Shown piece by piece: positions 2,439-26,877 of a DNA stretch of 32,192 nucleotides. Positions within the stretch are counted from its first letter, which is position 1; each line of letters begins with the position of its first letter. The DNA lies in the NCBI GenBank assembly GCA_001784175.1, contig MFPR01000005.1:1-32192 (forward strand), read 5' to 3'. Source of the stretch: Candidatus Lindowbacteria bacterium RIFCSPLOWO2_12_FULL_62_27. GTDB taxonomy: Bacteria > Lindowbacteria > 2-12-FULL-62-27. Position numbers and translations under genes: made by a program. Below the pieces are notes generated by a model, which did no database searches, was not told the DNA's origin, and was given only the letters and a program-made list of their open reading frames with translations.

Positions 2439-3068
2439 CTACTTCTTCGCGGGCGCCTCCTTGGGCCTGGGATGCGCGATTTTTTTCCACGCCTCCTTGA
2501 AATTGAATTCCGCGCGGTCGCCCATGCGCGGCGCGGTCTCGTTATGGCACTGCCGGCACATCGCCTCGGTCGGGATGATCAGGCCGTTGGCGACGGATTT
2601 GGCGCGGTCCTTCATGATGGGGACTTTGGCGTAATCGGCGCCCGCGCCGTGGCATCGTTCGCACTGCACGCCGTCCTCGATTTTGAATTTTTCGCCCAGA
2701 AGCGCCGCGTCGGCGCCGAACCCCGCCGTGTGGCACTTGAGACACTCCGGCGCCTTTTGCGGGTCGCCCTTCACGCCGACCTTGGCCGCCAGGTCCTTCG
2801 CCTCCTTTGACGCCAACATCTCGTAGGCTTTCGCGTGTTTGCTCTCCTGCCAGTGTTTGAGTTGGTTGCCCTTGGCGTCGCTCTTGTGGCACATGCCGCA
2901 TTTGGCGACGCCCACAAACCCGTGTTTTTTTGCCGCCGCCGGCTCGGGCTTGGCTTTGGCCGGGCCGCCCGCGGACGCCGCGTCCTCCGACCAGATCATC
3001 ACCGCAACGCACAGAAGGGAGAACACGATGGCGAGAATGACTCCCGTCACGATGAACGTCCGCTCCAT
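2439..3068 (-). CDS. tetraheme cytochrome c554-family protein with N-terminal signal/anchor
   Basis: Four CxxCH (CGMCH, CLKCH, CERCH, CRQCH), FVG-x2-KC and W-x2-SKHAKAY motifs, hydrophobic N-terminus. Alternative start 3107. Confidence 0.85.
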   Translation of the reverse strand: MERTFIVTGVILAIVFSLLCVAVMIWSEDAASAGGPAKAKPEPAAAKKHGFVGVAKCGMCHKSDAKGNQLKHWQESKHAKAYEMLASKEAKDLAAKVGVKGDPQKAPECLKCHTAGFGADAALLGEKFKIEDGVQCERCHGAGADYAKVPIMKDRAKSVANGLIIPTEAMCRQCHNETAPRMGDRAEFNFKEAWKKIAHPRPKEAPAKK

Positions 3069-3087
3069 TAATGTGACTTCCCTCTCG

Positions 3088-3687
3088 TTAAATTCCACCG
3101 CGTTCATCTCCTTCCTCCTTCTCCAAAAAATCCGCGGCCAGATCGGTTACCTGCCGGTAGAACGGCAGGCGCGCGGCGCCGGCCACTTTTCCGGCGAATT
3201 TCGGGAACCACGCGCCCAGATGCTCCGACAAAAATTTCCGCTCCGCCTTGAGGCACTCCTCCGCCATCGCCACGTCTTCCTCCCGGCGCGCCCGCGCCTC
3301 GCGCTCGACGAGCCTCTGCATCAATTCAAATTCGACCGACACGTGGTCCGGGATGAACGTCTCATCGCCGATGGAAAGTCCCATGGCCTCGATGAATCGC
3401 CGGACGGCGGAGGTCTGCGGACCCCACAACAGCGCCGGCTGGCCGGTCGCCGCCGCATGAACCGACTCGTACGGCGAAATATGCGGCCCCGGGCCGAGAA
3501 AAAGGCGGGTGAACTCGACCGCCAATTCCTCCATTCCCTGCCCGCCCGACGGGATGTCCAGCTCCATATCGGCGGCCTTGAGCGCGTCCAAAATCTCGGC
3601 GGTCGGCGCCTCACGATAGAGGCGGGAGAACAGGCCGTAGAGAGCCGCGCGGGACAGCGCTGTCTCTTCCTCGACCTCGGGCGTCAT
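3088..3687 (-). CDS. TorD/DmsD-family molybdoenzyme chaperone
   Basis: RAALYGLFSRLY, EFTRLF, PYESVH, PDHVSVEFELM, FLSEHLGAWFPKF. Start moved to ATG 3687, just after the A subunit stop. Confidence 0.9.
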   Translation of the reverse strand: MTPEVEEETALSRAALYGLFSRLYREAPTAEILDALKAADMELDIPSGGQGMEELAVEFTRLFLGPGPHISPYESVHAAATGQPALLWGPQTSAVRRFIEAMGLSIGDETFIPDHVSVEFELMQRLVEREARARREEDVAMAEECLKAERKFLSEHLGAWFPKFAGKVAGAARLPFYRQVTDLAADFLEKEEGDERGGI

Positions 3688-3701
3688 TGTCGTTTCCGTA
3701 T

Positions 3702-6140
3702 TCAGGCCTTCTCCACCGTGACGACCGTGTCGTTCCAGCGCATCTGGCCGCTGATGTGGTCGGCCTTGTTGGCGATCAGCCAATTGGGATGCTTGCCGAA
3801 CGTGTCCCATGTCGGCTTCTCGCCCTCAACCTCCGGGAAAACCTCCTTGCCCGACGCGTAGCGGCCGTACTCCCAGTGTCCGACGCTCATGGAGATGGCC
3901 ACGACCTGCGGGTGGATGCCTTCTGTCACGCGCGCGGTGGTGACGATTTCGCCGATGGGAGACTTGAGACGCACTTTGTCGCCGTTGGCGATTCCGCGCG
4001 CCGCCGCCGTCTTCGGATTGATCCACATGGGATTGTCGTGATAAATCTCCGTAAGCCACTTGCAGTTCGCCGTGCGGGACTGCGTGTGGAACGCGACCTT
4101 GAAGGTCGTCAGGTGCAGTTCGCCCTCCTTCATCGCCTCATGCTCCGCGATGGGTTCGTAGGACGGCATCGGCTCGTGGCCCTTCATCTTGAGCAGGGTC
4201 GAGTAAATTTCGAACTTGCCGGACTTGTTGACAGCGTCCGGCGCGAATCCGACGTAGACCTTGTCGCCGATCTTCTGCCCGACGTACTTCTTGAATGCAT
4301 CCTTCGTCGTGGTGTAATCCTCGCCTGCCTTGCCCTTCCACCAGACGCCGGTCTTCTCGTCTAATATGGCGTCTTTGAGATCCTCCGGCTTGACCTCCTT
4401 CTCGTGCTTGCGGTACTTGCCCTTGGCGTTCTTGTCGTACCACGCGCCATACTTTTTCATGTACTCAAATCCACCGACGGCCTTGATCTCGGGCGTGTTC
4501 TCGCAGCCGTCCTTGATGAACTCCTCTGACGAATTGAAGGGGAGGTCGATGCCGAGCCGTTTGGCGATGTCGATGCAGACATCCTGGAACTGGCGCGATT
4601 CGCCCAAGGGCTTCACGATGGGCTGGCGGATATACCATTCGGAGATCTGATCGTGCGACGCCATGTCGTCGAGGGTCCAGCGTTCGAGATAGGTGACGTC
4701 GGGCAGGATGAGGTCCGCCAGCGCGGCCGATTCGCTCATAAAGGGCGTGACGGCGACACTAAACGGCAGGAGGGTCTCGTCTTTCATGACGTCGATGTTC
4801 TCCTGGCATTCGCCGTTCACGTAGACCGGATTGTGGCAGTAAAACATGTAGACGTCCGGCCGGCCTTCCTTGCCTTCCTTGATCACCTTGAAGATCTGGT
4901 GGCTGACGTGGTGCGTCGGATAGGCGCAGTGCTCGATGCCATGGTCCAATGCCAGCGCCTTGGGTTTGGCGTCCGGCTTTTTGTAGGAGTTGACCCACTT
5001 GGGTCCGACCGCCCGGGCGCGCCCGCCGGGAACGTCGATGTTGCCGCAGAGCGCCTCCAGCATGAGCGACGCGCGTTCGCCGTCCGCGCCTTCCTGGTGG
5101 GCGACCAATCCGCGGTAGGTGACGCACACGGATGGCTTGGTCGTGGCGAATTCCTTGGCCAGCCGCGTGATGGTGGACGCCGGCACCCCGCTGACCTTCT
5201 CGGCCCACTTCGGCGTGTACTTCTTCAGATGCTCCTTGAGCTGTTCCACTGTCGCGGTCGTCCATGTCTCGATGAAGGCGGTGTCCTGAAGGCCTTCGTC
5301 GAGGATGACCTTGCACATGGCGAGGATGACGGCCTTGTCCGTGCCGGGTTTGATGGGAATCCACTCGCGGGATTTGGCGGCCGTGTTGGAGAGGCGCACG
5401 TCGAAGGTGACGAGCGGGACGCCGCTGCCGAGCGCGGCGGCAAGCCGCTGGGCGAACGGAACGTGATTGGTATGGGCTTCGAGCGGATTGCATCCGAAAT
5501 TGAGGATGAACTTCGAGCGGGACACGTCGAAGACGTCATAGTGTTTTCCCCACGTCAATTCCTGGGCCGTCCATTTGCCGCCTTCGCAGATGGACGTGTG
5601 ATTTCCGATGGTTTTCGTGCCGTAGGCGGGAAGGAAAAAGCCTGTGACGATGGTGGAATCGGAGCCTTTCATGCGCCCGTAATGGAACATGAACTTTTCG
5701 GGCGTTCCGTCGTCGCGGAGTTTTTTGAGGCGCGCCGTCAACTCATCGAGCGCATCGTCCCACGTGATGCGCTTCCACTTGCCTTCGCCTCGCGCGCCGA
5801 CCCGCCGCATCGGGTAGAGGATGCGGTCGGGATCGTAGACCTGATTGACTCCGGCCTGGCCGCGGGCGCAGATGACGCCGCTGGTGCGCAGGAGATTCGG
5901 GTTGCCTTCGATCTTGACCAGCCGGCCGTCCTCGACGTAGCCGATGATGCCGTCGCGGACGACGCACTGCCAGCAGGAGGATGGGACGGCCGTCCGGGCG
6001 ACGCCCTTGAGGGATACGTCGGCCCAGCCGGATTTGAGTTCGACCGCGCCGGCGAGGATCGGTTTTCGAACGCCGATCGTCGCGAGCGTGGCCGCGGCCG
6101 CGCCGAGTTTGAAGAATGACCTTCGCGTCATATTAACCAC
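3702..6140 (-). CDS. Tat-exported DMSO-reductase-family molybdoenzyme catalytic subunit (Arr/Psr/Anr-related, substrate unknown)
   Basis: Tat motif TRRSFFK, FS0 motif CWQC-x3-D-x27-C, DRILYPMRRVGARGEGKW, putative Mo-ligand loop NHTSICE, ADLILPDVTYLER, HTQSRT, 812 aa. Confidence 0.9.
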   Translation of the reverse strand: MVNMTRRSFFKLGAAAATLATIGVRKPILAGAVELKSGWADVSLKGVARTAVPSSCWQCVVRDGIIGYVEDGRLVKIEGNPNLLRTSGVICARGQAGVNQVYDPDRILYPMRRVGARGEGKWKRITWDDALDELTARLKKLRDDGTPEKFMFHYGRMKGSDSTIVTGFFLPAYGTKTIGNHTSICEGGKWTAQELTWGKHYDVFDVSRSKFILNFGCNPLEAHTNHVPFAQRLAAALGSGVPLVTFDVRLSNTAAKSREWIPIKPGTDKAVILAMCKVILDEGLQDTAFIETWTTATVEQLKEHLKKYTPKWAEKVSGVPASTITRLAKEFATTKPSVCVTYRGLVAHQEGADGERASLMLEALCGNIDVPGGRARAVGPKWVNSYKKPDAKPKALALDHGIEHCAYPTHHVSHQIFKVIKEGKEGRPDVYMFYCHNPVYVNGECQENIDVMKDETLLPFSVAVTPFMSESAALADLILPDVTYLERWTLDDMASHDQISEWYIRQPIVKPLGESRQFQDVCIDIAKRLGIDLPFNSSEEFIKDGCENTPEIKAVGGFEYMKKYGAWYDKNAKGKYRKHEKEVKPEDLKDAILDEKTGVWWKGKAGEDYTTTKDAFKKYVGQKIGDKVYVGFAPDAVNKSGKFEIYSTLLKMKGHEPMPSYEPIAEHEAMKEGELHLTTFKVAFHTQSRTANCKWLTEIYHDNPMWINPKTAAARGIANGDKVRLKSPIGEIVTTARVTEGIHPQVVAISMSVGHWEYGRYASGKEVFPEVEGEKPTWDTFGKHPNWLIANKADHISGQMRWNDTVVTVEKA

Positions 6141-6969
6141 GAGCGTTCACCCCCTCGCCGAGCACTTCGGGTTTATCGAGCGCGATGTAGTACGTGTTCG
6201 GTTTTGTTTTTGCTTCCGGTTTCCAGACGCCGGTTTTGGCGCCTTTCAGGCGTTTTGAAATTTCGCTGCCGGGGTCGTTCATGTCGCCGAAGACGATGGC
6301 GCGGCCGACGCAGGTGTTGGCGCAGGACGGCTCGATGCCCTGGTCCAGCCGGTGGACGCAGTAGTCGCACTTGCCGATGCCGTTCTGATCCGGATCGCCG
6401 CCGGCTTTCATATAAGGATGAACGTATCGCGCGCCGTAGGGACAGGCCTCGACGCACTGCTGACAGCCGATACAGCGTTCGTTGTTGACGAGGACAAGGC
6501 CGTCGGGGCGCTTGTAGGTCGCCTTCTGCACATATTCGACGGTCGTGCCGTCGGGCGCGTTGTAGGTGACGGTGATGGGATCGACGGGGCAAGCCTCCAC
6601 GCAGGGCGGCGCGTCGCAGTGATTGCAGAGGATGGGCGCGATGGCGCGGCCTGTTTTCGGATAAGAGCCGTATTCGAGATAATTGACTTTCCGGCGGAAC
6701 ACACCCAAGGGTACATTGTTTTCGCTCTTGCATGCAACCTCGCAGGCCTTGCAGCCGGTACAGCGCGTGAGGTCGATGAGCATGCCGTAGTGAGGCGTTT
6801 TTGTTTCAGCGCCCAGAGCTTCGAGCGGCCGGCCAGTCACCAGAGTTGCGGCGCCGGCGGCGGCCGCAGCCGCGCCAATACCGAGGGTTTTTAGAAAATC
6901 CCGGCGCTCGGCAACCGCTACGGCGCCCTCCTTGCCTTCCCCGGAGGAATCCCTTATTTCCGAATCCAT
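6133..6969 (-). CDS. 4Fe-4S dicluster electron-transfer subunit with its own Tat signal
   Basis: ERRDFLK plus hydrophobic stretch; four Cys groups CTGCKACEVAC, CNHCDAPPCVEACP, CIGCQQCVEACP, CDYC..PSCANTC; overlaps the A subunit start. Confidence 0.92.
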   Translation of the reverse strand: MDSEIRDSSGEGKEGAVAVAERRDFLKTLGIGAAAAAAGAATLVTGRPLEALGAETKTPHYGMLIDLTRCTGCKACEVACKSENNVPLGVFRRKVNYLEYGSYPKTGRAIAPILCNHCDAPPCVEACPVDPITVTYNAPDGTTVEYVQKATYKRPDGLVLVNNERCIGCQQCVEACPYGARYVHPYMKAGGDPDQNGIGKCDYCVHRLDQGIEPSCANTCVGRAIVFGDMNDPGSEISKRLKGAKTGVWKPEAKTKPNTYYIALDKPEVLGEGVNARG

Positions 6970-7094: not shown

Positions 7095-8228
7095 TCAGAA
7101 TTTCACAGCCACCAGAAGCGACTGAATGTCGTCGTCCGGGTCGGTCAACCCGCTGCCCGACGTGAAGGTGCGCTTGTTGTTCGTGAAGGCGTACTTGAAC
7201 GTCACCCACTCGCCCAGCTGATATGCGATGCCCGCCTCCACGCGCTTCATCTCGTTGACGTTAACTCCCATGCCTCCCGTCCCGCCCGACGGGGCGAGGA
7301 AGTTGGAGCCTTTCAGGTCGATCTTGCTCCACTGCAGGCCGAGATAGACCTTCTCCGTCACATCGTACCGGCCCTCGAGCATCCATACCTTGCCCTCCCG
7401 CTTGCCCTTGTTGCCGTCGGCCGCCTCCGTGTCATCATCGAACTCGCCGTAATAGCCCTTGACCAATCCCTGCTCAAATTTGTAGTCTGCATGAAGCAAC
7501 CAGAGTTCCCGCTCCGCGTTTTTGCCGGCGCCGGTCAGCGTAACGCCGCCAACCGCCGCGGACGACGTGCCGTTCACACCGAGATCGCCGGAATTGTGCC
7601 AACTGCCCCACACCGACAGCGCGTCGGTGAGCTTGCTTCCCAGCCGGAACGTGATCGACTTCTCGCTGTCAACGTCGGGATCGTCGCCAGTCGAGGCGGC
7701 GGCGGCGCTGACGGCGCTCGCCGAGTTGTGCGCGCTGCCCTCCGTGAAGGCCAGGTCGTAGGTGATGCCGTAGTCGGAGACATCGGCCTTGCCGAAAAAC
7801 ATGATGCCTCGATCGTTTCCGTTGAACAGGCCGACCGAGTTGTTCACCAGGTTCTGCTCAATCGAGTTGTCAATGAACGTTTCAACGCCCAGTGGAATTT
7901 TGAATTGACCGACCCGGGCCTTGACGTCCGCCAGACCCACAAACCCAAGCGGAACGTCCAGGAAGGCATAATCCACGCTGCCGAATTCCCCCTCGTTGAT
8001 GTTCATCCGGAACGTCGCCTTGAGGTCGGCCGGCAACTCAAATGTGGTGACCAGCTTGACGTCCGGCACCCGGAAGGTTGCGGTGTCATACACGCCGCCC
8101 TTGTCCGATTGAAAATACCCCATCGCCGAACGGCCGCTCATCGTGATGAACTTGGCGTCGGCCGAAACGGCGAACGCCAGCGACATGGCGATCAACAGCA
8201 TCCAGATTACTGCATTGCGATTAAACAT
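7095..8228 (-). CDS. outer-membrane porin (OprO/OprP-like anion porin)
   Basis: Signal peptide (VSADA-K), DYAFLD, VGQFKIPLGVE, DRGIMFFG, C-terminal VAVKF. First gene after the sigma54-type promoter. Confidence 0.75.
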   Translation of the reverse strand: MFNRNAVIWMLLIAMSLAFAVSADAKFITMSGRSAMGYFQSDKGGVYDTATFRVPDVKLVTTFELPADLKATFRMNINEGEFGSVDYAFLDVPLGFVGLADVKARVGQFKIPLGVETFIDNSIEQNLVNNSVGLFNGNDRGIMFFGKADVSDYGITYDLAFTEGSAHNSASAVSAAAASTGDDPDVDSEKSITFRLGSKLTDALSVWGSWHNSGDLGVNGTSSAAVGGVTLTGAGKNAERELWLLHADYKFEQGLVKGYYGEFDDDTEAADGNKGKREGKVWMLEGRYDVTEKVYLGLQWSKIDLKGSNFLAPSGGTGGMGVNVNEMKRVEAGIAYQLGEWVTFKYAFTNNKRTFTSGSGLTDPDDDIQSLLVAVKF

Positions 8229-8349
8229 GGCTGATACAGCCCCCTTTGCCTCTCGATCCGTTTGCCGGATCGAGGTAGATTTGCTTTTTCGTCTTCACGC
8301 CGCGGTCAACATCCGAAATATGCGGACGACCGGGGTCTTAGGGGAACTG

Positions 8350-8366
8350 TGCAAAGGATATTCCGA
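8350..8366 (-). promoter_or_regulatory. sigma54-type -24/-12 promoter
   Basis: TCGGAATATCCTTTGCA = GG-N10-GC with TTGCA; 16/17 identical to 27299-27315. Confidence 0.7.
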
Positions 8367-8452
8367 TGGGGGGGGACGCCGGCGAAAAAATCGACAAGCT
8401 CTTTGACAACATAGAGATAGCAGGGGCTGTTATGGAATGGAGTGTGGGAAAA

Positions 8453-8490
8453 TGTGTGTCATATCCACGCAGTTGTACTGATTAATTACA
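8453..8490. promoter_or_regulatory. tandem TGT-N11-AC(A/G) putative upstream activating sequences
   Basis: TGTGTGTCATATCCACG (8453-8469) and TGTACTGATTAATTACA (8474-8490); the latter is 14/17 identical to 27423-27439. Confidence 0.6.
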
Positions 8491-8517
8491 TCCTATGAAC
8501 AACTCCAAAAACGGGGC

Positions 8518-8862
8518 CTAACGGCGCGGCTTCAGATCGTTCAGCGTGTCTCGAACCCAGGAAAAAGCGGCGACCGTAGCGGGCATGCCGATCGTGCCGG
8601 CGGCCATGGCCACCACCTGTTCGATATCCCGCCGCGATATGCCCATCTTCGACGCTTTGCGAACGCCTGAATGGATCGCGCCTTCCCGCAACGCGCCGAC
8701 GGAAATTCCCAATTTGATCAGCCGCCGGGTCTTCTCATCCAACCCGCCGGCCGTCTCGCCGGCCCGGTTGATCAGTTCCCAGGCTCGTTCGAGATCCGGG
8801 TATCGCGCACAGAAGTCGTTAAAGGTCTTCGGAGGTTTCGGAAGTTTCGATTTCTTTTTCAT
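8518..8862 (-). CDS. carboxymuconolactone decarboxylase (CMD/AhpD-like) family protein
   Basis: LDEKTRRLIKLGISVGA..GAIHSGVRKASKMGISRRDI..IGMP; no CxxC. Confidence 0.8.
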   Translation of the reverse strand: MKKKSKLPKPPKTFNDFCARYPDLERAWELINRAGETAGGLDEKTRRLIKLGISVGALREGAIHSGVRKASKMGISRRDIEQVVAMAAGTIGMPATVAAFSWVRDTLNDLKPRR

Positions 8863-8920
8863 ATTGCATCCCTATCACGGATATTTCACGATGTACAGCC
8901 GATTTCTAAACCAGATTTCA

Positions 8921-9361
8921 TCATGGTTCTCGACGCGAACGCCGGCTCAACCACCACGCTGCGGCGGCTACCGATAGGAGCGTGATCACGGCGACCAGGG
9001 GTCTGGCCAAGGGCAGGAGCGCAGCGCCGAACAGGTTGAGGTAAACCACGAGTATCGGGGACCCACAGCACCCCAGCAGGTAGCAACCGGCAACAGCCAG
9101 AACCCCGGAGAAGGTGATTCCGCCGATGGCCAGACTGCGCGATCCGCACAACTTATCTTCCCGATACCGTCGCAGCGCCCACACCGCAAAGGCCAGGGAG
9201 AGGGCGTAGGAGAACCCGAGGAAGTAGGATTGGGTTGCGGCGTAGCTCCTCCCGCCTTCCGGGAACAACCCGAGCCAAAGATAGTGGACACCCCAAACAG
9301 CCCAGAAGACCGCAATCGGCAAGACGGACCGCAGCACGAAATGTTTCACCCTCACAAACAT
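8921..9361 (-). CDS. small ~4-TM membrane protein with C-x4-CC motif
   Basis: Hydrophobic segments; AGCYLLGCCGSP; start overlaps the upstream stop (TGATG; GTG at 9364 is an alternative). Confidence 0.7.
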   Translation of the reverse strand: MFVRVKHFVLRSVLPIAVFWAVWGVHYLWLGLFPEGGRSYAATQSYFLGFSYALSLAFAVWALRRYREDKLCGSRSLAIGGITFSGVLAVAGCYLLGCCGSPILVVYLNLFGAALLPLARPLVAVITLLSVAAAAWWLSRRSRREP

Positions 9362-10521
9362 CACAGCAATCGCATGAGGTCGTGACTCGGGTTGGCGGGG
9401 CGCGCTTCCGGCGCACCGTCCTGGACGTATCCGGCTCCGGTCAGAAGGGCTGCCTCGGCGCGGGCCAACTCTCGTCCGAGATAGGCCGCGTGGTCAAGCC
9501 GGGAAACCAGTCCCTTTTCGATGGCCGGTATGTAGAGCTCCGCGGCAGCGCGGCCTTCTATCACCATGTTGAGCACGCCGTTGTTCCCAAAGTGTTCAAG
9601 CGAAAGTGCGCCGCGGACGCGGTCCACGTAGAGGACGAAGTACCCAGCGGGATCACCGGTCATACGTTCCGGCAGATATCCCGTGATGGGGTGGAGTTCC
9701 TGGATAGAGGGAAACGGGTCGGCCGGCCCCGGATCGCGCGCCGCGCAAGCGCGAACACGGCGCAGGATCGCGTTCAAGTCGTCCACGCCGATCAGGTCGG
9801 CAATCTCCACGCTCCGCCGCAAGTGTTCGACCGCCTCGCCGCCAACGTTCTTGAGGATCGGCCGCTTGCCGTTGGCCCCTATGATGCGTCCGCGCTCGTC
9901 GATCCCGGAACGGCCCAGCGAGAGCAGCGACTGGCCCGGCAGGTGTCCGATGGCCTGCCGGGAATCCGCGCCGCAGAGGACGAGAAAGCGGATATTCGGG
10001 TTGGCCAGGACATTCGTGATGATTCGCTCGATGCCCAGATTCTCCGTGTGGAGCGTGCCGACAATTGAGATTGCGTCTTCTCCGCTCCGGACAATCGGTT
10101 CAACGAGATCCCCGGCGTTGAGCGTGCAGACCGCGACGGATGCTCGATACCGGAGGACGGTGTAATCACCCGGGAACGGTGGCCAGCCCGCATGTGCTTC
10201 GGCTGCTTCCGCGGGGCACGGATCAATCTCCAGCTTTGTGCCCGATCCGTTCAGGGCGTTGACCGCCAGCGCGGGGTGGCAGACCTTGCATCCCAAGCAG
10301 TCGTACGTGCGATCGGTGAGTACAGCTTTCCCCGCCTCGATGGCCGATGAGAGCCGATCCGGCCGGGCAGTCGCCGGTATCGCATCCCCAATCGCCTTCA
10401 AGGTGTCGTGGAAGCATCCGCATGGCCGGCACTTGCTGGCGGCGGTGGCATGGTCGATCTGTGCGGCCGCCTCCTCCACGGATGAGGTCGATGCCGCATG
10501 AATGGAATTTTCGCCTTCCAC
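9361..10521 (-). CDS. Cys-rich domain + MtrA-like corrinoid-binding domain + DUF4346 fusion
   Basis: N-terminal CRPCGC and YDCLGCKVC; MtrA signatures GWP..GDY, VAVCTL, HTENLGIERIITNVLANPNIRFLVLCG, GHLPGQSL, GRIIGANG; C-terminal DPAGYF..LDHAAYLGRELARAE. GTG start overlaps the arsR stop (TAGTG) after GAGGAG. Confidence 0.85.
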   Translation of the reverse strand: MEGENSIHAASTSSVEEAAAQIDHATAASKCRPCGCFHDTLKAIGDAIPATARPDRLSSAIEAGKAVLTDRTYDCLGCKVCHPALAVNALNGSGTKLEIDPCPAEAAEAHAGWPPFPGDYTVLRYRASVAVCTLNAGDLVEPIVRSGEDAISIVGTLHTENLGIERIITNVLANPNIRFLVLCGADSRQAIGHLPGQSLLSLGRSGIDERGRIIGANGKRPILKNVGGEAVEHLRRSVEIADLIGVDDLNAILRRVRACAARDPGPADPFPSIQELHPITGYLPERMTGDPAGYFVLYVDRVRGALSLEHFGNNGVLNMVIEGRAAAELYIPAIEKGLVSRLDHAAYLGRELARAEAALLTGAGYVQDGAPEARPANPSHDLMRLL

Positions 10522-10925
10522 TACCGCCGCGCTCCTCGCAGGTCCGACATCAAGGTTCGCGCGCCGCTCGGCCGGTCCTCTGTCAAGCAGAGGCCTTGAT
10601 CGAGAAGACTCACCACGCACGGGTCCACGATGCGGTAGTGCATCTGGGTTCCGTTGCGCCGCGAGGCCACGATCCCCTTGTCCACGAGCCTCCGAAGTTG
10701 GTTCGAGACGGCCTGCGTCTTCACGCCGACAGCCTCCGCAAGGTCCCCCACGCACAGGTCCGGCTCGCGGACCAGGGCATGGAGCATCCGCAGACGGGTG
10801 CCGTTGGCGAGCACCTTAAACGCCGCCTCCATACTTGCGGACTGTTCCGAGCCGATGAGCGGGCGCTTCCCAATCTTCGGCTTCGGCGGGCAACAGGCGA
10901 CCGAAGTTCGCCCGGATCCGGCCAT
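10521..10925 (-). CDS. ArsR/SmtB-family repressor with N-terminal CC
   Basis: ACCPP, FKVLANGTRLRML, DLCVGDLA, QAVSNQLRRL, RRNGTQMHYRI, DPC..GLC; SD GGAAGG before ATG 10925. Confidence 0.9.
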   Translation of the reverse strand: MAGSGRTSVACCPPKPKIGKRPLIGSEQSASMEAAFKVLANGTRLRMLHALVREPDLCVGDLAEAVGVKTQAVSNQLRRLVDKGIVASRRNGTQMHYRIVDPCVVSLLDQGLCLTEDRPSGARTLMSDLRGARR

Positions 10926-10938
10926 GGCTGCCTTCCGT

Positions 10939-10981
10939 TTGGACACTACGACATCATATGGTGTAATAGTGTCCAAGTCAA
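10939..10981 (-). promoter_or_regulatory. sigma70 promoter inside a 38-bp palindromic operator
   Basis: TTGACT (10981-10976), 17 nt, TATGAT (10958-10953). Palindrome TTGGACACTA-cg-ACATCATATGGTGT-aa-TAGTGTCCAA at 10939-10976. Confidence 0.85.
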
Positions 10982-10993
10982 GTATGGAGGCAT

Positions 10994-12313
10994 TCAGAAA
11001 CTGTATCGCATCCTGAAGTAGAGGTTGTCGTTCCCGTCGAGCTGGCCGAACTCGGTATGAGCGCGGCGGCCTGTGAATACGTCGGCGCCGACGACCAGTG
11101 TCCACTCGTCCGACATCTTCCATGAGAGGCACGGCCTGAGATGGGCGTCGCGGTCGGTGGGACTGTAAAAGGCGAACAGGGAGGCCTCGACGGTTTGAAA
11201 CCGGAAGAGCCGGGTCAGCCGCAGGGTCAAGACACGCCGCCGCTCGGCGCGGGGCGGATTGCCGGGCGCGGCGCTTCGTTGAAACGCGCCGAAGTTGCGC
11301 ATCCGCTCGACGTAATATTGAATCCCCACGCGCGCGTCATTCGGAAAATCGCGTTCGTATCCCGCCAGATATTTCATCGCCGAATTCTCGACGAGGCGGT
11401 CCGTGCCGCGGCGGTCGTCGATCGAATCGTACCAGCCGGCCTCAAACCAGCCGATACCGCCGAGCCGCGCCACAGGCCCGCGAATGCTTGCGCCCCATAC
11501 CGCCAGACGCGGATAAAAGAGTTCCCGGCCGCCTGAACTCACAAACCCACGCGGCTGTTTGAAAAACCCGCGGAAGGCGTACAGGGCGCACTCGGCGCTT
11601 CCATACGAGCGCGCGAGGCGCGCCGCCGCTTCCGTGTGGTCCAGGCGCGCAGCAGGCTCGATCAACACGCGCCGCGCGTCGCTCCCCGCGATCCGGCCCA
11701 ACGTGGGATCGAAGAAACTGAGGCGCTCGCCGCGCAGGGGGGCGTCGGGCGCGAAGAACGGAACGAACACAACGTCCAGGGACGCGCCCGGCCCGAACGC
11801 CGAAAATCTGGCGGCGTCGGAAGGCGCTTTGAGATATTCGTCGTCCCGGCCGATGAAGAACGAGACGAAATCTTTCGGAAACAGATCGTTGACGAACAAC
11901 AGGTCCCCCGTTCCCCACGTGAGAATCTGCCGGCCGATCTTGACGTCAAGCCACTCCGCCGGGCTGAACAGAACATGCGCTTCGCGAATCCGCATCTGGA
12001 CGCTCGATGCATTCCGGTCGCCGGCGAGATCGGACTTGGAGAACAGTTCCGCGCGCCATTTGTTTTCCCGGGCGGGCCGCCAGAGGGTTTTCAGTTGAAG
12101 GCGGGATTCGAGGAAGTTGAAGCCGGCGTGCCGGGTCTTTCCCTCGCCGCCGATCTTCGGCCCGAAGGCGGCTTCGGCGAATCCGTGGATTTCGCGGGCG
12201 TCCACGCGCGCCGCGCCCGCCGAGAACGCGGCGATGCAGGCGGCGACGAGAAACGCCCCGTCAGCGAATCCAGGACGCCGGCGGACGGCGGAGACTCCGT
12301 TCCTGAAAAACAT
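10994..12313 (-). CDS. outer-membrane beta-barrel (DUF1302-like) partner of MMPL/LolA-like proteins
   Basis: IREAHVLF, IGRQILTWGTGD, FGQLDGNDNLYFRMRYSF C-terminus, signal-like region ending ARVDA. Start uncertain. Confidence 0.75.
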   Translation of the reverse strand: MFFRNGVSAVRRRPGFADGAFLVAACIAAFSAGAARVDAREIHGFAEAAFGPKIGGEGKTRHAGFNFLESRLQLKTLWRPARENKWRAELFSKSDLAGDRNASSVQMRIREAHVLFSPAEWLDVKIGRQILTWGTGDLLFVNDLFPKDFVSFFIGRDDEYLKAPSDAARFSAFGPGASLDVVFVPFFAPDAPLRGERLSFFDPTLGRIAGSDARRVLIEPAARLDHTEAAARLARSYGSAECALYAFRGFFKQPRGFVSSGGRELFYPRLAVWGASIRGPVARLGGIGWFEAGWYDSIDDRRGTDRLVENSAMKYLAGYERDFPNDARVGIQYYVERMRNFGAFQRSAAPGNPPRAERRRVLTLRLTRLFRFQTVEASLFAFYSPTDRDAHLRPCLSWKMSDEWTLVVGADVFTGRRAHTEFGQLDGNDNLYFRMRYSF

Positions 12314-13067
12314 TGGCTGAAAGGCCGACGTCGTAGGACACGTCGCCGACGGCAATTTCGGTAAACCGCCCGTTGTCGAGGTCGGTCATCATTGCCTTCG
12401 TGATCGTCGGCGTGCCGCCGATCGTCCGGATTTCACGCGTCTCATAGATCTTGTACAGCTTCCCCTGCGGACTGTAGTGCTCGACTTTGAGCGGCAAAAA
12501 CGTCGCGGTGTCCATCCAGAACAGGCGATACGCGAACTCGGACTCGCCCGGCCGTTTCGCCGCGCTCTTCACGACAAACGCCGCGCGATCACCGATCGCT
12601 TCTTCCCGCAAAAACGCGTGGTCGTCCTCATCAATGTCGCGGCCGGAGATGTCCTCGTAGGAGAAATCGGATCCGGCGAAGCTCGTGCGCCGGTCGGCGG
12701 CGGAGATTCGTTTGACGAGGTCGAGCGCGGGCATGTAGAGCCAGCGGTCGTCGTCCCTGCCGACATGCTTGAACACCAGAAAGCTCATCCCCTGCACGTC
12801 CGGGGGCGCGAGGAAGTGGAGATAGTACGATTGTTCGCCTCCGTCTTTCAGATCGCGCCGGAGCATGACGAGCCGCCGTTTGCGTTCCTGTCCCTGCCGG
12901 TTCACGATCCGCATTGTGACCGCCATTTTCGCGTCATCGCGCGGATAGTAATACGCCAGGATCATCCGCTCCGCAATCGCGTGTCCATCCATCGGCGGCC
13001 CGGCGCTGACGCCCCCCTCGACAATGAGAACGGCCGCGAGCGCCGCAAGAATACGTTTCAGTTTCAT
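12261..13067 (-). CDS. LolA-like outer-membrane lipoprotein-sorting protein
   Basis: Signal peptide; FLAPPDVQGMSFL, DDDRWLYMPALDLVKRISA, SFAGSDFSYEDI. True start 13067 forms an ATGA overlap with the MMPL stop. Confidence 0.88.
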   Translation of the reverse strand: MKLKRILAALAAVLIVEGGVSAGPPMDGHAIAERMILAYYYPRDDAKMAVTMRIVNRQGQERKRRLVMLRRDLKDGGEQSYYLHFLAPPDVQGMSFLVFKHVGRDDDRWLYMPALDLVKRISAADRRTSFAGSDFSYEDISGRDIDEDDHAFLREEAIGDRAAFVVKSAAKRPGESEFAYRLFWMDTATFLPLKVEHYSPQGKLYKIYETREIRTIGGTPTITKAMMTDLDNGRFTEIAVGDVSYDVGLSANVFQERSLRRPPASWIR

Positions 13068-15442
13068 GTGTGTTCTCCTCCGATAAGTTGCCGGCGCAGG
13101 AGCCGGATCAGGGCGGGAAGATAAACGAGGCTCATGGCCGACGACAACAGCATGATGGCGGCCATCAATACGCCGACGGTGATGTAGGGCGTGAGGTCGG
13201 CGAAGATCATGACGAGGAATCCGGATGCGAAGAGAATCGCGTTGCAGATAACCCCGCGGCCCGGCCGGGACACGGTCCAGATCAGCGTCTCGTCGATCCC
13301 CGAGGCCGTGTCGATCCCGGCGAGGCGTTGGCGGAACCGGCCGACGAAGTGAATGGCGAAATCGACGGCCATGCCAAGCGTCAGCGTTGAGAGCACCGCC
13401 ACCGGCATGTCGAAATCTTTTCCGATCCACCCAACGACGCCGTAGATCACGGTAATCGTCGCCAGGAGAGGCAGAAAACAGACGCATCCCCACAGCGCCG
13501 AACGCATCTGGATCACCAGCAGAATCCAGACCATTCCCAGTCCCCATAAAAAACTTTCGAGCATGCCCCGGAGGACTTCGTGATTCCACACCGTATTGAA
13601 GTAGGCGATGCCGGCCGGGCGGATTTGCGCCCCGTCCGGAAGCGGATGCGCCGCGAGATGGGCGTTGGCCCGCCCAATCACGCCGTTCATGGCGTCGGCG
13701 TCCCATGTTTTGAGTTGAATCATGATGTTGGCGTTTTTCAGCGGGAAATCGACGACGTTGTCGATGTCGCGCGGTTTGGCGGAGGAACTCAAAAGAAGGA
13801 GAATCTGCCCGACCGCGCCGGCGGATTCCGGGATGCGGTCGAATGAGGGATCGTCGTCGTGGAGGACGCGATTGGCGCGCCGGATGTAGTCCGCGATCGA
13901 AACGGTTTTGCCGACGAGCGGATCGCGTTCGAGTTCCCGCTGAAGACGCTCGATCGCCGTCAGCATCGCCGGATCGCCGATGGCGCCCTCCGACCGGGCC
14001 TGCACGACGATGTAGGCGGTCGACGTTCCGCCGAGATGCTCGTTGAGAATCCGGTCGGCGCTTCGAACGGCGCTTTCCGGTTTGAACCAGTGCACCATGT
14101 TGTTGTTGACCCGGATGCGCGCAAGGCCCGCCCCCGCGACAAGGATCACCGCCAGGCCCACCAGCAGAACGGGCTTGGTCCGGCGCACGCAAAATCCGCC
14201 GAGCCGCGTAAGCCATGCCGCGCCCGCACTCGCGGGATCGTTCTGCCGCCGCGCCAGCCGGTCGACGCATGCGGCCGGTACCAGCATCAGCATCGCCGGC
14301 ACAAGCGTGTAGCTCATGAGGAGAACGACGAGCGTTCCGAATCCGACGACAAGCCCGAAAATTTTCACGGGCACGATGTCTCCCGCCGCCAGCGCGGCGA
14401 ATCCCACCGCGGTCGTGATGTCCGAGTAGAAAACCGGCGGGCCGACGACGGCCATCGTATCGAGCGCCGCCTGCCGCCTGTCGACGCACCCTCCGTCGGG
14501 CACTCGACATCCGTGTCTCGCGCAAACCCCGACTCCGGGTACGGCGACATCCCTGTCGCCGCCCGCGCGAAAGGCGAACTCGTTCAGGATGTGGACGGCG
14601 TCCGTGGCGATGGCCATGAGAAAAACGGGACTCATGGAACTCATGATGTGCACCGGAAATCCAAGTCCGATGAGTCCGCCCATGCTCCAGACGATGCTGA
14701 TCATCGCCACGGCCATGTTGGCCGCGATCACCCAAACATTCCGAAACATCAGCCAGAGCGCCAAGCAGATCACGGCGCCGGCGAAGGGCGAGAAAAACGC
14801 CATCTGGCGGAACATCTCCGCGCCGAATGTGTCGCGGGCGATGGGATCGCCGGCAAGATGGAAGACGTCGTCTCCCGAATTCTGCGGGAAAATCGCGCGG
14901 ATTTTGTCCGCGATTTCCTTGCCGTTGACACCCGGCTCAAGCGGAACGGAGATGACGGTCGCCGTCGCCCGATCCGAGATGAGGCGATTGACGAAAAGCG
15001 GGTTGTCGAGGAGCTGGCGACGCAGGGCCGCCAGTTCCACGTCCGACGCGGGAATGACCGCCAGAGGCGGCTTGACGATCAGGTCACCGTTGGCGCTCGT
15101 TACGTTGTCCGTGGCGGAAAGGCTTGCCACGTCCCGCGCGACGACGCCGGGGATCGACTGAATCGCGCGCGTGAGTTCCGCGACGCGGCCGAGGGTTTGC
15201 GGATTGAAGACGCCATGCGGATTGACGATTCCGACGACGATCACGTCCGCATGAAGGGCGAAATCCCGCTCGACCTGATCGTTGTATCGCCGCACTGGCG
15301 ATGTTTCCGGCAGCATGTGTTTGGGATCCGTGTCGACGGTGACTTTGGGAAACTGCATTCCAAAGAGGACGCTTACCATGGCGACCGCGGCGAGCACGGC
15401 GCGCGGATGGTCGACGCTAAGTTGCGTGAGACGCTTGAGCAT
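13064..15442 (-). CDS. RND/MMPL-family transporter
   Basis: Two repeats of TM - periplasmic domain - TM bundle; IATDAVH and GMAVDFAIH motifs, TTAVGF; 792 aa. Confidence 0.9.
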   Translation of the reverse strand: MLKRLTQLSVDHPRAVLAAVAMVSVLFGMQFPKVTVDTDPKHMLPETSPVRRYNDQVERDFALHADVIVVGIVNPHGVFNPQTLGRVAELTRAIQSIPGVVARDVASLSATDNVTSANGDLIVKPPLAVIPASDVELAALRRQLLDNPLFVNRLISDRATATVISVPLEPGVNGKEIADKIRAIFPQNSGDDVFHLAGDPIARDTFGAEMFRQMAFFSPFAGAVICLALWLMFRNVWVIAANMAVAMISIVWSMGGLIGLGFPVHIMSSMSPVFLMAIATDAVHILNEFAFRAGGDRDVAVPGVGVCARHGCRVPDGGCVDRRQAALDTMAVVGPPVFYSDITTAVGFAALAAGDIVPVKIFGLVVGFGTLVVLLMSYTLVPAMLMLVPAACVDRLARRQNDPASAGAAWLTRLGGFCVRRTKPVLLVGLAVILVAGAGLARIRVNNNMVHWFKPESAVRSADRILNEHLGGTSTAYIVVQARSEGAIGDPAMLTAIERLQRELERDPLVGKTVSIADYIRRANRVLHDDDPSFDRIPESAGAVGQILLLLSSSAKPRDIDNVVDFPLKNANIMIQLKTWDADAMNGVIGRANAHLAAHPLPDGAQIRPAGIAYFNTVWNHEVLRGMLESFLWGLGMVWILLVIQMRSALWGCVCFLPLLATITVIYGVVGWIGKDFDMPVAVLSTLTLGMAVDFAIHFVGRFRQRLAGIDTASGIDETLIWTVSRPGRGVICNAILFASGFLVMIFADLTPYITVGVLMAAIMLLSSAMSLVYLPALIRLLRRQLIGGEHT
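14477..14561. repeat. in-frame palindromic element in the MMPL gene
   Basis: 7-bp direct repeat CCTGTCG at 14477-14483 and 14552-14558 (75 nt apart); perfect 8-4-8 hairpin 14542-14561 with GGGA loop on the minus strand; nested stems CGTACCC/GGGTGCG and GTCGGG/CCCGAC around GACA-CGGA-TGTC. Confidence 0.65.
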
Positions 15443-18864: not shown

Positions 18865-19626
18865 TTACCGCCCTACGCCGCCCAGCGAATGGCAGCTCAT
18901 GCAACGCCCCTCATCCGGCAGAGATTTCATGTATGCCACAAGCGACTCGCGCTCCTCCACCAGCATGTCAATTTTGGGCATGACCGTCCCGGGGCTGACC
19001 TCGCGCGGCTCCTTGAAGTGTTCCTCCAGCCATTTGGCGTCGCGCCGGAGGCCCACGTCGCTCAGGTTGGGGCCAACCGTGCCGCCTTCTCCGAAAACGG
19101 AGTGGCAGTTGCCGCAGCCGAATGTGGCGAACAGGAGCTGTCCCTCGGTGATTTTCGGATCGGTCCGGATGGCCCGGTTGATCATCGGCGTTTGGGCGCC
19201 GTACCAGGTCAGAACAACCACGGCCGACAGGGTCGCCATCCCCAGCGCCGTCCAGCGGGGCCGATCCCACGGATGGCGCGAGATCGTTCGATCGAGCCGT
19301 GGGACGAGAAGCAGAGCCATGACGCCGACGAGAGGCACGCCCACCGCCGCCAGCGCCTCCAATTTTCCCGGAAAGAGTTTGAGCATCTGAAACAGGAAGA
19401 GAAAATACCATTCGGGCCGGGGATTGTAGGTGGTGGAGGCCGGATCGGCCATTTCATCGAGTTCCGCGCCAAGCGTCAACGCGAGAACGAGGACGATGAC
19501 CGTCAGCGCCGCCATTGCCACCAGGTCCTTGAAGACCGCATACGGGTAGAAGGATTTCCCGCGTTCTTTGGCCTGCCGGTACTCATCAAGAATTTTCTCG
19601 CGGTCCCGGTCCATTCCGGCGCTCAT
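18865..19626 (-). CDS. qcrC: Rieske/cytochrome b complex subunit IV fused to cytochrome c (QcrC-like)
   Basis: FYPYAVFKD, PRPEWYFLFLFQ (Qo PEWY), CGNCH..GPNL..MP heme domain, extra terminal CMSCH. Confidence 0.88.
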   Translation of the reverse strand: MSAGMDRDREKILDEYRQAKERGKSFYPYAVFKDLVAMAALTVIVLVLALTLGAELDEMADPASTTYNPRPEWYFLFLFQMLKLFPGKLEALAAVGVPLVGVMALLLVPRLDRTISRHPWDRPRWTALGMATLSAVVVLTWYGAQTPMINRAIRTDPKITEGQLLFATFGCGNCHSVFGEGGTVGPNLSDVGLRRDAKWLEEHFKEPREVSPGTVMPKIDMLVEERESLVAYMKSLPDEGRCMSCHSLGGVGR

Positions 19627-20297
19627 GGCTTTCTCTCCGGCGGCGCGGATATGCCATGCCAGACGACCAGAAAGAGGTGGACGACGACGAAAATGAGAAG
19701 AAGGGCGGGAAGAAGCAAAACGTGAAATGAGTAGAACCGGGTGAGCGTTCGGGCGCCCAGCACCTCGCCGCCCTTCAACACGCTTGCCGTCGCCGGCCCG
19801 ATGAGCGGAACCTGTTCGGCCATTTCAGTGCCGACTTGCGTTGCCCAGTAGGCTTTCTGATCCCAGGGCAGAAGATAACCGGTAAAGCCGAACCCGAGGA
19901 CGATGACGAAGAGAAAGACGCCGGTCGCCCACGTCATTTCGCGCGGGTACTTGTACGCGCCCATGAAAAAAACGCGAAGAAGGTGCAGGGTGACCATGAT
20001 CACCATGAGGCTCGCCGCCCATTTGTGTACGGCGCGCAGGAGACCTCCCATGGGCGTCTGGTCGATGAACTGGATGGACGCGTAGGCGTGGTCCGGCGTG
20101 GGAGCGTAATTCATCGCCAGAAGGATTCCGGTGAAGACCTGCACGAGGAACAAAAAGAGCGTGGCGCTGCCGAAGGTATACAGCCACGAGACCCGCCCGG
20201 AAATCTCCGGGATTTTTCGATCGAGGAGCGCGGCTTTGACCCGGCGCCAACCGCAGCGCTCATCGAGTTCCTGAAGCAACGATTCGTAACGGCTCAT
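19623..20297 (-). CDS. qcrB: cytochrome b6-type N-terminal subunit (QcrB-like)
   Basis: TGILLAMNY, RAVHKW..LHLLRVF, GYLLPWDQKAYW, RFYSFH..VHLFLV with four heme-b His; true start ATG 20297. Confidence 0.92.
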   Translation of the reverse strand: MSRYESLLQELDERCGWRRVKAALLDRKIPEISGRVSWLYTFGSATLFLFLVQVFTGILLAMNYAPTPDHAYASIQFIDQTPMGGLLRAVHKWAASLMVIMVTLHLLRVFFMGAYKYPREMTWATGVFLFVIVLGFGFTGYLLPWDQKAYWATQVGTEMAEQVPLIGPATASVLKGGEVLGARTLTRFYSFHVLLLPALLLIFVVVHLFLVVWHGISAPPERKP

Positions 20298-20298
20298 G

Positions 20299-20811
20299 CT
20301 ACACCCCCGCCCTTTTCTGAGCCACCGGCATGACATGCAGGCGGCCGTCCACCAGACGCGTCGGATACCGGTCCAATGGCCTCGGCGGCGGGCCTTCCAC
20401 CACCGCGCCGGTTTTGTCAAAGACGCCCATGTGACACGGGCACAAAAATTTCTGCCGCTGGGCGTCCCAGCGGAACGGACAGCCGAGGTGCGGGCAGTGC
20501 GGGTCGAATGCCTCGAAGGCCGATTCGGCCGTCCGGACAACCCAAACCGTCGCCCGGGATTGCGCGACGATCCACCCGTCCCGTTTTCGTTTCGAGATTT
20601 CGACTCTCTGGGGAACGCCGATTTTGAAGCCGTCCACGTCTCCGACGTCCGACCAGTCCGCCTCCCGTTTTCGCAAGAGGGGCGCAGAAAAAACCGTTCC
20701 ACCCACGCCCGCGAAAACGATGGCGATGAATCCGCCCATATAGTTGATGGCGCGGACAAACCAAGACCGGCGGGTCAATTCCGCCTCTTTGGGACAGGGT
20801 TGATCGCTCAT
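20299..20811 (-). CDS. qcrA: Rieske iron-sulfur subunit (QcrA-like)
   Basis: TRRSWF Tat anchor, CPHLGC and CPCHMGVF boxes, GPPPRPL; start 20811 forms an ATGA overlap. Confidence 0.92.
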   Translation of the reverse strand: MSDQPCPKEAELTRRSWFVRAINYMGGFIAIVFAGVGGTVFSAPLLRKREADWSDVGDVDGFKIGVPQRVEISKRKRDGWIVAQSRATVWVVRTAESAFEAFDPHCPHLGCPFRWDAQRQKFLCPCHMGVFDKTGAVVEGPPPRPLDRYPTRLVDGRLHVMPVAQKRAGV

Positions 20812-21248: not shown

Positions 21249-21261
21249 TCCGGATTCCTCC

Positions 21262-23233: not shown

Positions 23234-23237
23234 TTCA

Positions 23238-23858: not shown

Positions 23859-23873
23859 GTCTCATCACCCCCC

Positions 23874-26810: not shown

Positions 26811-26835
26811 TTGCAGGCCTCCTCCATATTTATAT

Positions 26836-26854
26836 TTGGAACCTGGTGTTCCAA
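26836..26854. promoter_or_regulatory. inverted repeat between arsR and the A subunit
   Basis: TTGGAAC-ctggt-GTTCCAA in an AT-rich gap just upstream of the SD; operator or RNA hairpin. Confidence 0.4.
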
Positions 26855-26877
26855 TCCGCAATCTATTATCCAAAAAC

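Follow-up and report, generated by a model that had tools for sequence, protein, structure and literature searches.

Why does a bacterium keep a relative of MtrA, whose type of B12 binding is to our knowledge known from methanogen energy metabolism alone, behind a repressor gene of the ArsR family? The question is raised by a 32,192-nt stretch of contig MFPR01000005.1 from Candidatus Lindowbacteria bacterium RIFCSPLOWO2_12_FULL_62_27 (GCA_001784175.1), hereafter the window, whose minus strand carries a promoter-like site inside a palindrome, followed by arsR, an MtrA-like gene, and a gene for a membrane protein with a C-x4-CC motif. A first-pass annotation of this DNA had described a dedicated ArsR-controlled module and had proposed a B12-dependent methyl-transfer system for metals and metalloids. 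Our analysis confirmed and strengthened the observation and partly supported the interpretation. We propose that these genes may form a metal-induced operon whose corrinoid-dependent protein transforms a soft metal, more likely Hg, Cd, Pb, or Zn than As or Sb; this reading is tentative, a serious possibility that falls somewhat short of being probable. The genes of the module are as follows.

10521-10925, minus strand: arsR, encoding an ArsR/SmtB-family repressor of 134 amino acids; ATG at 10925, with GGAAGG 5′ of the start
9361-10521, minus strand: MtrA-like gene, encoding 386 amino acids; its GTG start overlaps the TAG stop of arsR by one base
8921-9361, minus strand: membrane protein gene, encoding 146 amino acids; its ATG overlaps the preceding TGA by one base

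The one-base overlap of stop and start codons at both junctions agrees with the earlier proposal that arsR, the MtrA-like gene, and the membrane protein gene are translationally coupled. The ends of the MtrA-like gene are supported by a 100% identical protein of 386 amino acids with the same ends in the protein collection (P0001). Since the upstream neighbour gene ends at 10994, the module has its own control region, and its description as a dedicated ArsR-controlled unit is borne out. The MtrA-like protein is predicted to comprise three domains.

10207..10521, minus strand: helical domain with seven cysteines, residues 1–105, containing C31-x2-C34-x-C36, C75-x2-C78-x2-C81, and C102-P
9694..10203, minus strand: Rossmann domain of the MtrA type with putative corrinoid binding, residues 107–276, in which His193 is the equivalent of the axial ligand
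9418..9654, minus strand: PterinBD-DUF4346 domain (PF14251), with invariant E309, H310, D343, H344, and Y347

Pfam assigned MtrA (PF04208) with an E-value of 1.5e-41 and 142 bits against a cut-off of 25, and PF14251 with an E-value of 2.4e-21. The PF04208 match covered residues 109–272 of a 387-aa query with one extra N-terminal residue. NF002128 of NCBIfam (PRK00964.1-6), a full-length 390-aa model named MtrA, aligned with residues 9–375 at 460 bits, below its cut-off of 568, indicating that the predicted protein shares this architecture as a divergent member. By sequence, PDB entries 5L8X and 5LAA matched the MtrA domain with an E-value of about 1e-36. An AlphaFold model built from 56 sequences (pLDDT 86.1) was compared with these two structures by Foldseek, which gave TM scores on the target of 0.84–0.87, rmsd values of 1.8–2.1 Å, and identities of 41–42%; when the whole model was searched, the MtrA domain alone found matches. 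The His of GHLPGQ aligned with the His of GHITGQ/GHIVGQ in 5L8X and 5LAA, confirming the earlier assignment of the GHLPGQS His to the cobalt-ligating His of archaeal MtrA.

In the report of Wagner et al. on MtrA from M. fervidus (PMC4915002), His84 is the axial ligand and is bonded by Glu54; the protein binds a propionamide through Asn55 and the nucleotide tail through Thr53 and Asn64, with the base sandwiched between Tyr18 and Val61. His84, Glu54, Asn55, Thr53, Asn64, Tyr18, and Val61 aligned with H193, E160, N161, T159, N170, Y120, and I167 of the window protein, respectively. Among 56 sequences from many phyla, T159, E160, N161, N170, and H193 were invariant and Y120 was conserved at 90% or more. 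Corrinoid binding by the MtrA-like protein, a putative function deduced from these alignments, is well supported by sequence. The window genome encodes 12 B12-binding domains over the cut-off and contains one cobalamin riboswitch, which lies on a contig other than that of the module; therefore, the host uses corrinoids. The C-terminal membrane anchor of MtrA is absent, as had been noted before, and the protein ends in DUF4346 instead.

The architecture had first been given as a six-Cys domain followed by MtrA and DUF4346. The latter two were recovered by Pfam, and the N-terminal domain has seven conserved cysteines rather than six (residues 31, 34, 36, 75, 78, 81, and 102, each conserved at 97% or more in 78 sequences). 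Residues 1–105 form four helices in the model with a pLDDT of about 90, and the domain includes a ferredoxin-like stretch, Y-D-C-L-G-C-x-V-C-x-P. Neither longer fused forms of 677–2000 aa, the lack of which is weak evidence, nor stand-alone N-domain proteins of 30–211 aa were found, and a protein atlas search with the N-domain gave no usable match. A selenocysteine form was likewise looked for and not seen in the loci covered: at none of the Cys columns of the 80 genome loci did an in-frame TGA occur, and in the one match flagged with a TGA (G058) this codon comes after the last conserved motif, at the expected end of the gene.

Bacterial proteins that join MtrA to DUF4346, which the first-pass annotation had suggested searching for, occur in many phyla. 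At least 2,749 proteins matched the MtrA-like protein at E-values up to 1e-5, a lower bound obtained by scoring 8,000 candidates sharing most words, and the best 120 of them all contained both Pfam domains. A relative was encoded in 183 of 288 pattern matches in species-representative genomes and in 311 of 486 on metagenome contigs. Carriers were found among Acidobacteria, Nitrospirae, Planctomycetes, Chloroflexi, Myxococcota, several proteobacterial classes, Ignavibacteria, Elusimicrobia, and cyanobacteria, and cultured carriers include Anaeromyxobacter oryzae, Dechloromonas strains, and Methylomonas methanica. The window genome has a single copy of the gene and a single PF04208 locus, and it is the only one of four genomes of its class with the gene; in another class, 24 of 83 genomes matched at E-values up to 1e-20, 11 of them with a full-length copy scoring more than 540 bits.

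To compare gene neighbourhoods, a genome sample of 80 loci and a metagenome sample of 77 loci were used. ORFs of the genome sample were called crudely (longest non-overlapping, GC3-weighted) and clustered by BLAST, a procedure that missed the MtrA-like ORF in three loci; for the metagenome sample, 70 representatives of the named clusters served as tblastn queries. L115-L117, which are 99–100% identical to the window, were left out of the metagenome sample. L116 and L117 carry the MtrA-like gene at 100% and 99% identity, respectively, on contigs of two other metagenome records, and this near-identity means that the window organism was sampled more than once. Resolvase genes were present in 6 of the 80 genome loci; together with two copies in Dechloromonas sp. 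ARDL1, they fit a mobile accessory gene. The ARDL1 chromosome has two cassettes of ArsR, MtrA-like, Trx-like, and DsbD_TM genes (L036 and L071), about 1.4 Mb apart, whose shared downstream neighbours suggest a duplicated or mobile segment. Four plasmid records were matched. On the Planococcus kocurii plasmid NZ_CP013660.2 (L081), which is small, mobilizable, and without informative context, a DUF4346 protein of 458 aa (464-1840) lies beside an ISL3 transposase, and two further Planococcus plasmids have the same match. A separate group of MtrA-only proteins of 227–255 aa without DUF4346 was found in one class of sulfate-reducer-like genomes (L107-L114).

Of the 80 genome loci (75 with more than 400 nt upstream), 62 have an ArsR-family gene directly 5′ of the MtrA-like gene and in the same orientation, and one more was scored as divergent; among the 77 metagenome loci (65 with more than 400 nt upstream), 56 have such a gene directly 5′. 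This regulator linkage is the firm part of the neighbourhood evidence. Cys-bearing partners were encoded in 52 of the 80 genome loci, seven of the 80 having less than 1.2 kb of downstream DNA, and in 47 of the 56 metagenome loci with at least 1.2 kb downstream. In 33 of the 80 genome loci, the partner was a DsbD_TM protein (PF02683) with an invariant NPCC, a second CC pair (at least one Cys at 90% or more), and PC-x-TP; membrane-anchored Trx-like proteins with one conserved Cys were encoded in 23 and small secreted or periplasmic C-x4-C proteins in nine.

Genes for metal transport and resistance recurred in these neighbourhoods. In three of the 80 loci, a MerC gene stood between a CadC-like regulator gene and the MtrA-like gene (L079 by Pfam, 1.1e-10; L062 and L076 as its cluster-mates), and tblastn revealed the same arrangement in L183 of the metagenome sample. 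Of the observations that link the family to mercury-type uptake, this MerC insertion (L062, L076, L079, and L183) is the clearest. Ten loci held a cluster of ZntA-type P-ATPases and 15 a cluster of the CusA/CzcA RND family, each identified by scanning a single representative. Six loci had MerR-like genes, with the representative under the NCBI MerR cut-off, and three had MerA; a CDF gene was directly 3′ in L069 and L078, ABC exporters were encoded in 7 of the 80 loci, and TlpA-like genes in some. Among 149 of the 309 remaining nearby ORFs, Cation_efflux (CDF) was matched five times, MerC three times, MerT twice, and TauE, HATPase_c, TrbC, ZT_dimer, and five overlapping SAM-methyltransferase models twice each. 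At least one efflux or mer gene was present in the fetched flanks of 32 of the 80 genome loci and 18 of the 77 metagenome loci, counts that stand without a random-gene comparison. The emphasis of the first-pass annotation on As, Sb, and Se did not hold: no arsenic gene family was recurrent beside the 80 loci or present among the 25 listed of 105 Pfam families, the neighbours were ZntA-type, CzcA/CusA, CDF, MerC, MerT, MerA, and MerR-like, and about half of the regulators were CadC-like, as detailed below. The eight loci of the MtrA-only proteins had no recurrent metal or ars neighbours.

The control region of the window contains two overlapping elements.

10939-10976: 38-bp palindrome, the likely ArsR operator, with 19-nt arms of 84% complementarity and no spacer
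10953..10981, minus strand: promoter-like site, TTGACT (-35), 17-nt spacer, TATGAT (-10), matching at 10 of 12 positions, inside the palindrome

Both the promoter-like site and the palindrome around it were thus found as first described. TTGACT-17-TATGAT is the sole sigma-70-like match within 8200-11400 (3.2 kb); shuffled sequence gives 0.9 such sites, and therefore the promoter match alone is weak and not significant. The outer arms of the palindrome, TTGGACACTA and TAGTGTCCAA, are perfect over 10 bp each. Close inverted repeats of 16 nt or more occur just four times in the whole window, and that at 10939-10976 is the only non-overlapping one among them. In related loci, the upstream regions of arsR genes of the window type (defined below) share a common core, ATTACAC-N6-GTGTAAT, usually just past a TTGAC box, and the inner part of the palindrome (10949-10966) fits the family core TTACA-N8-TGTAA with two mismatches. 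The 80 genome loci, 833,501 nt in total, contain 15 exact copies of TTACA-N8-TGTAA, every one of them just 5′ of a window-type arsR. Most were located 357–425 nt before the MtrA-like start; five were at 924–943 nt, with a V4R-domain ORF between both genes in four and directly upstream in the fifth (L073), and one lay farther off, at -2429 nt in L037. This comparative evidence, not the promoter match, carries the weight, and on its basis we take the predicted operator to be real. A V4R-domain ORF between, or just before, the regulator gene and the MtrA-like gene was observed in L041, L046, L050, L051, L055, L073, L157, L165, and L189; the scanned representative, a protein of 178 aa from L050, is rich in Cys at its N-terminus and gave a weak MsvR-like match.

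The window regulator matched HTH_5 (Pfam, 6.8e-10) and NF033788 (81.9 bits, over the cut-off of 55), and it reached none of the NCBI equivalog models. It has cysteines at positions 11, 12, 58, 103, and 113. Alignment of 51 regulators encoded next to the family gave 23 of the window type, 26 that were CadC-like, and two of other kinds. The CadC-like regulators combine a C-x3-C motif close to the N-terminus with ELCVCD in helix alpha-3, whereas the window regulator has LCVGD in place of the alpha-3N motif ELCVC of CadC/ArsR, which was confined to the other 26. The window-type regulators form a group of their own, with the conserved motifs C-x-PKP, DPC, and G-L-C. An N-terminal CC doublet together with an alpha-3 Cys had been proposed as the sensor, yet these residues are not a conserved site: the doublet (with Cys11) occurs in just 3 of the 23 window-type regulators and the alpha-3 residue Cys58 in 15, whereas Cys103 and Cys113 are each present in all 23 and Cys12 in 18. 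CadC-type sites are sensors of Cd, Pb, Zn, and Bi; three-thiolate sites are suited to As(III) and Hg(II) as well. The inducing metal would be thiophilic, with Cys12, Cys103, and Cys113 as the most likely sensor ligands.

The C-x4-CC membrane protein encoded 3′ of the MtrA-like gene, in coupled arrangement as previously noted, has about four long helices, and its motif C93-x4-C98-C99-G-S-P102 was invariant in 10 sequences. A vicinal Cys pair and a Pro in a transmembrane helix define Mer transporters, and C98-C99-G-S-P102 provides this combination. The structure model of the protein was poor (pLDDT 54). Nine of the 80 genome loci and 16 of the 77 metagenome loci encode a relative 3′ of the MtrA-like gene, and in all of these 16 a C-x4-C protein precedes the membrane protein. 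Downstream of the membrane protein gene, the window has one more gene.

8518-8862, minus strand: CMD/AhpD-family gene (PF02627, 2e-12), 58 nt 3′ of the membrane protein gene

This gene is present as first noted and is not a conserved partner: relatives were found in 0 of the 80 genome loci and 0 of the 77 metagenome loci (0/157). Its translation has a single Cys and no CxxC redox motif. The CMD gene is probably a local addition outside the conserved system. Compared with these loci, the window therefore lacks the small periplasmic C-x4-C protein and has gained the CMD gene.

Farther from the module, the minus strand of the window encodes other systems. Directly upstream (10994-15442), a weakly DUF1302-like outer-membrane protein, a LolA-like protein, and an MMPL/RND transporter are encoded, which by annotation are unrelated to metals. 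On the lower-coordinate side, next to a porin-like gene at 7095-8228, a PhsA/Psr-like molybdoenzyme set (2439-6969) includes a TAT-signal Fe-S subunit, a TorD-like chaperone, and a multihaem cytochrome; its catalytic subunit is nearest to PhsA, at 381 bits below the cut-off of 694, and scored 223 bits with ArrA, far under the cut-off. A second molybdoenzyme set (18865-26900), TtrA-like at 352 bits, far under the cut-off, includes an Fe-S subunit, an FlpD/ferredoxin protein, a chaperone, and a split cytochrome b/cytochrome c pair.

From these data, the following mechanism can be envisaged. The operon would be self-regulated and switched on by a thiophilic metal: the ArsR-type repressor would sit on the palindrome overlapping the -35 and -10 elements and would be released when a soft metal binds its cysteines. 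This layout is standard for ArsR/SmtB repressors, whose operator covers the promoter in front of the gene for the repressor itself. The product would be a cytoplasmic protein of three domains. The helical seven-Cys domain may provide a [4Fe-4S]-type cluster site plus a tri-thiolate metal site, the former to re-activate the corrinoid, as Fe-S clusters do in corrinoid iron-sulfur proteins, and the latter to hold the metal, like the Cys triad that serves as the metal site of ArsM. The MtrA-type domain would bind the corrinoid base-off/His-on through His193, and DUF4346 would contribute its conserved Glu-His/Asp-His set. By analogy with the vicinal-Cys mercury transporters MerT and MerC, the membrane protein might pass the metal ion inward to the Cys domain. 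The import of a toxic metal pays only if the metal is then changed, which favours a transformation inside the cell, and the invariant corrinoid site implies that this change involves the corrinoid. Acting on the bound metal, the corrinoid would most likely transfer a methyl group to or from it, with Co(I)-driven reduction as the alternative, and the product would be less toxic or volatile. Judged by the regulators and neighbours of the family, As and Sb are poorer candidates for the substrate than cations of the Hg, Cd, Pb, or Zn type.

Several observations weigh against this proposal. No match to MtrH was found in the 94%-complete window genome, in line with the first-pass statement that companion mtr genes are absent from the window, and no methyl-donor enzyme (MtrH, pterin-binding, or MT2-type) was found among the recurrent neighbour clusters. 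The DUF4346 profile gave nothing significant against PDB sequences (best E-value, 0.34), and binding of a methyl donor by this domain of about 85 residues, which has no solved relative by sequence or fold, is without support. The best match of the N-domain profile to PDB sequences was a ferredoxin-type CxxCxxC stretch with a non-significant E-value of 1.2, and the MtrA meander motif (GAIPF/Y-x-EN) is only partly retained, as G218, P221, and N225. The flanks of the module in the window contain no metal-resistance genes. The membrane protein had no Pfam match to the Mer transporter families MerT, MerC, and MerF at E-values up to 0.01; homology to the DsbD_TM partners was also considered and rejected (hhalign probability, 1.6%), the motif alone being shared. 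At the nearest relative locus, L001, tblastn found no relative of the membrane protein, which is therefore dispensable. Finally, methylation of Hg, Cd, or Pb would not be an obvious detoxification, and its benefit to the cell is doubtful.

A rival role is metal buffering or chaperoning, in which the seven-Cys protein would hold the metal or hand it to exporters and the corrinoid domain would be structural or regulatory. The SmtB-controlled metallothionein SmtA is a precedent, and the seven invariant cysteines, the L001 locus, where only arsR was found beside the MtrA-like gene by tblastn, and the exporters that often adjoin the family (CDF, ABC, ZntA-type, and RND) are all consistent with this role. 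However, the cobalamin contacts and the axial His vary little or not at all between phyla, a constancy that a mere scaffold would not need. Polar residues are invariant in DUF4346 as well, and uptake-type partners such as MerC argue for intracellular processing. We consider buffering unlikely.

The frequent DsbD_TM and Trx-like partners, along with the TlpA-like genes of some loci, could instead point to a thiol-redox relay, with the protein as a cytoplasmic electron donor to the DsbD_TM/Trx-like pair or the CC membrane protein that keeps envelope thiols reduced under metal stress. The single conserved Cys of the Trx-like partner and the extra CC pairs of DsbD_TM are more like metal handling than disulfide exchange, though, and many loci have ABC, CDF, or MerC partners instead, while L001 has no member of the DsbD_TM or Trx-like clusters. 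Moreover, dithiol exchange needs no corrinoid. Such a relay seems quite improbable.

A methylation or demethylation system specific to As or Sb, closest to the emphasis of the first-pass annotation, has the cysteines of the window regulator in its favour: the N-terminal CC and alpha-3 Cys form the type of site that Corynebacterium ArsR uses. In addition, hgcAB responds to arsenic according to a preprint (bioRxiv 10.1101/2022.10.17.512643). Little credence can be given to this specificity in view of the scarcity of the doublet (3/23) and the partial conservation of the alpha-3 Cys (15/23) among window-type regulators, the CadC-like character of 26 of the 51 regulators, the lack of a recurrent ars family near the 80 loci, and the eight MtrA-only relatives of one class without recurrent ars or metal context. 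Corrinoid or cobalt housekeeping, in which the protein would keep B12 in store, protect it, or re-load it once B12 enzymes come under attack from soft metals, agrees with the conserved corrinoid site, the use of B12 by the host, and the fact that CzcA and CDF-type proteins also move cobalt, but it is highly improbable, as no cob, cbi, or btu gene or cobalamin riboswitch was found in the neighbour clusters or the window region, the genome's riboswitch being on another contig, and the regulators have thiolate sites whereas Co sensors typically have N/O sites.

Corrinoid-dependent transformation of a soft metal can be set against known systems. With methanogen MtrA (PF04208; 5L8X and 5LAA), the MtrA-like protein shares the Rossmann-type fold, the axial His with its Glu partner, and the tail-pocket residues; it differs in having no anchor, no other mtr genes, no MtrH in the genome, and an extra seven-Cys domain plus DUF4346, in its place under a metal sensor, and in its occurrence in bacteria, including aerobic genera such as Methylomonas. 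In mer operons, a regulator is combined with uptake by MerT/MerC/MerP and cytoplasmic MerA. The window module resembles these in its metal regulator, its vicinal-Cys membrane protein or, in relatives, small periplasmic Cys protein, and its cytoplasmic protein with an N-terminal Cys domain, and true MerC, MerT, and MerA genes are present in some related loci; it differs in the ArsR/CadC-type regulator, the lack of a Pfam Mer match, and the corrinoid-type protein in place of a flavin disulfide reductase. As in ArsR/SmtB and CadC units, the operon opens with the gene for its own winged helix repressor, a palindromic operator covers the promoter, and the sensor residues are cysteines; unlike in those units, the regulator comes from the separate group described above.

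HgcAB resembles the module in that a corrinoid protein would, in our reading, act on a soft metal, with a possible Fe-S partner function. HgcA is a corrinoid protein of the CFeSP type with a Cys ligand from the cap helix and a transmembrane domain, and it is not homologous: the window protein is of the MtrA type, soluble, and has a His ligand, and Pfam found only MtrA and DUF4346 domains in it. The module also has no gene for an HgcB-type ferredoxin. The nearest functional precedent is that hgcAB is under an ArsR-like regulator in at least one organism, as reported in a preprint (bioRxiv 10.1101/2022.10.17.512643). Wagner et al. (PMC4915002) go no further than to note that some bacteria have homologues of MtrA, in which His84 is mostly retained; an Asgard study (PMC11291895) deals with archaeal MtrA-like and MtrAH proteins. 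A literature search found nothing relevant on DUF4346, MJ0107, MtrA with ArsR, or "methyltransferase subunit A" with cadmium. In agreement with the first-pass annotation, which knew of no characterised system with this architecture, no published characterised counterpart was found, and the supplementary lists of MtrA homologues of PMC4915002 may name bacterial members.

The present results make a relative of MtrA a conserved and widespread product of metal-sensor operons among Zn, Cd, Pb, and Hg resistance genes. If metals are transformed by it, the family would represent a new enzyme class with a bearing on how metals are detoxified and on how mercury and other metals cycle in the environment; DUF4346 would gain a function, and the control region would constitute a new metal-responsive promoter/operator pair. 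A bolder form of the proposal, which we regard as rather doubtful, is that the family provides a third, B12-based route for mercury-like soft metals beside MerA/MerB and HgcAB, with a His-on corrinoid, built-in Fe-S re-reduction, methylation, demethylation, or reduction on a three-Cys site, vicinal-Cys importers, sensors of the Cd/Pb/Hg type, and horizontal spread through more than 10 phyla, including the named aerobic genera. Were this route to exist, it could explain mer-independent mercury reduction or the unexplained turnover of methyl-metals in the environment.

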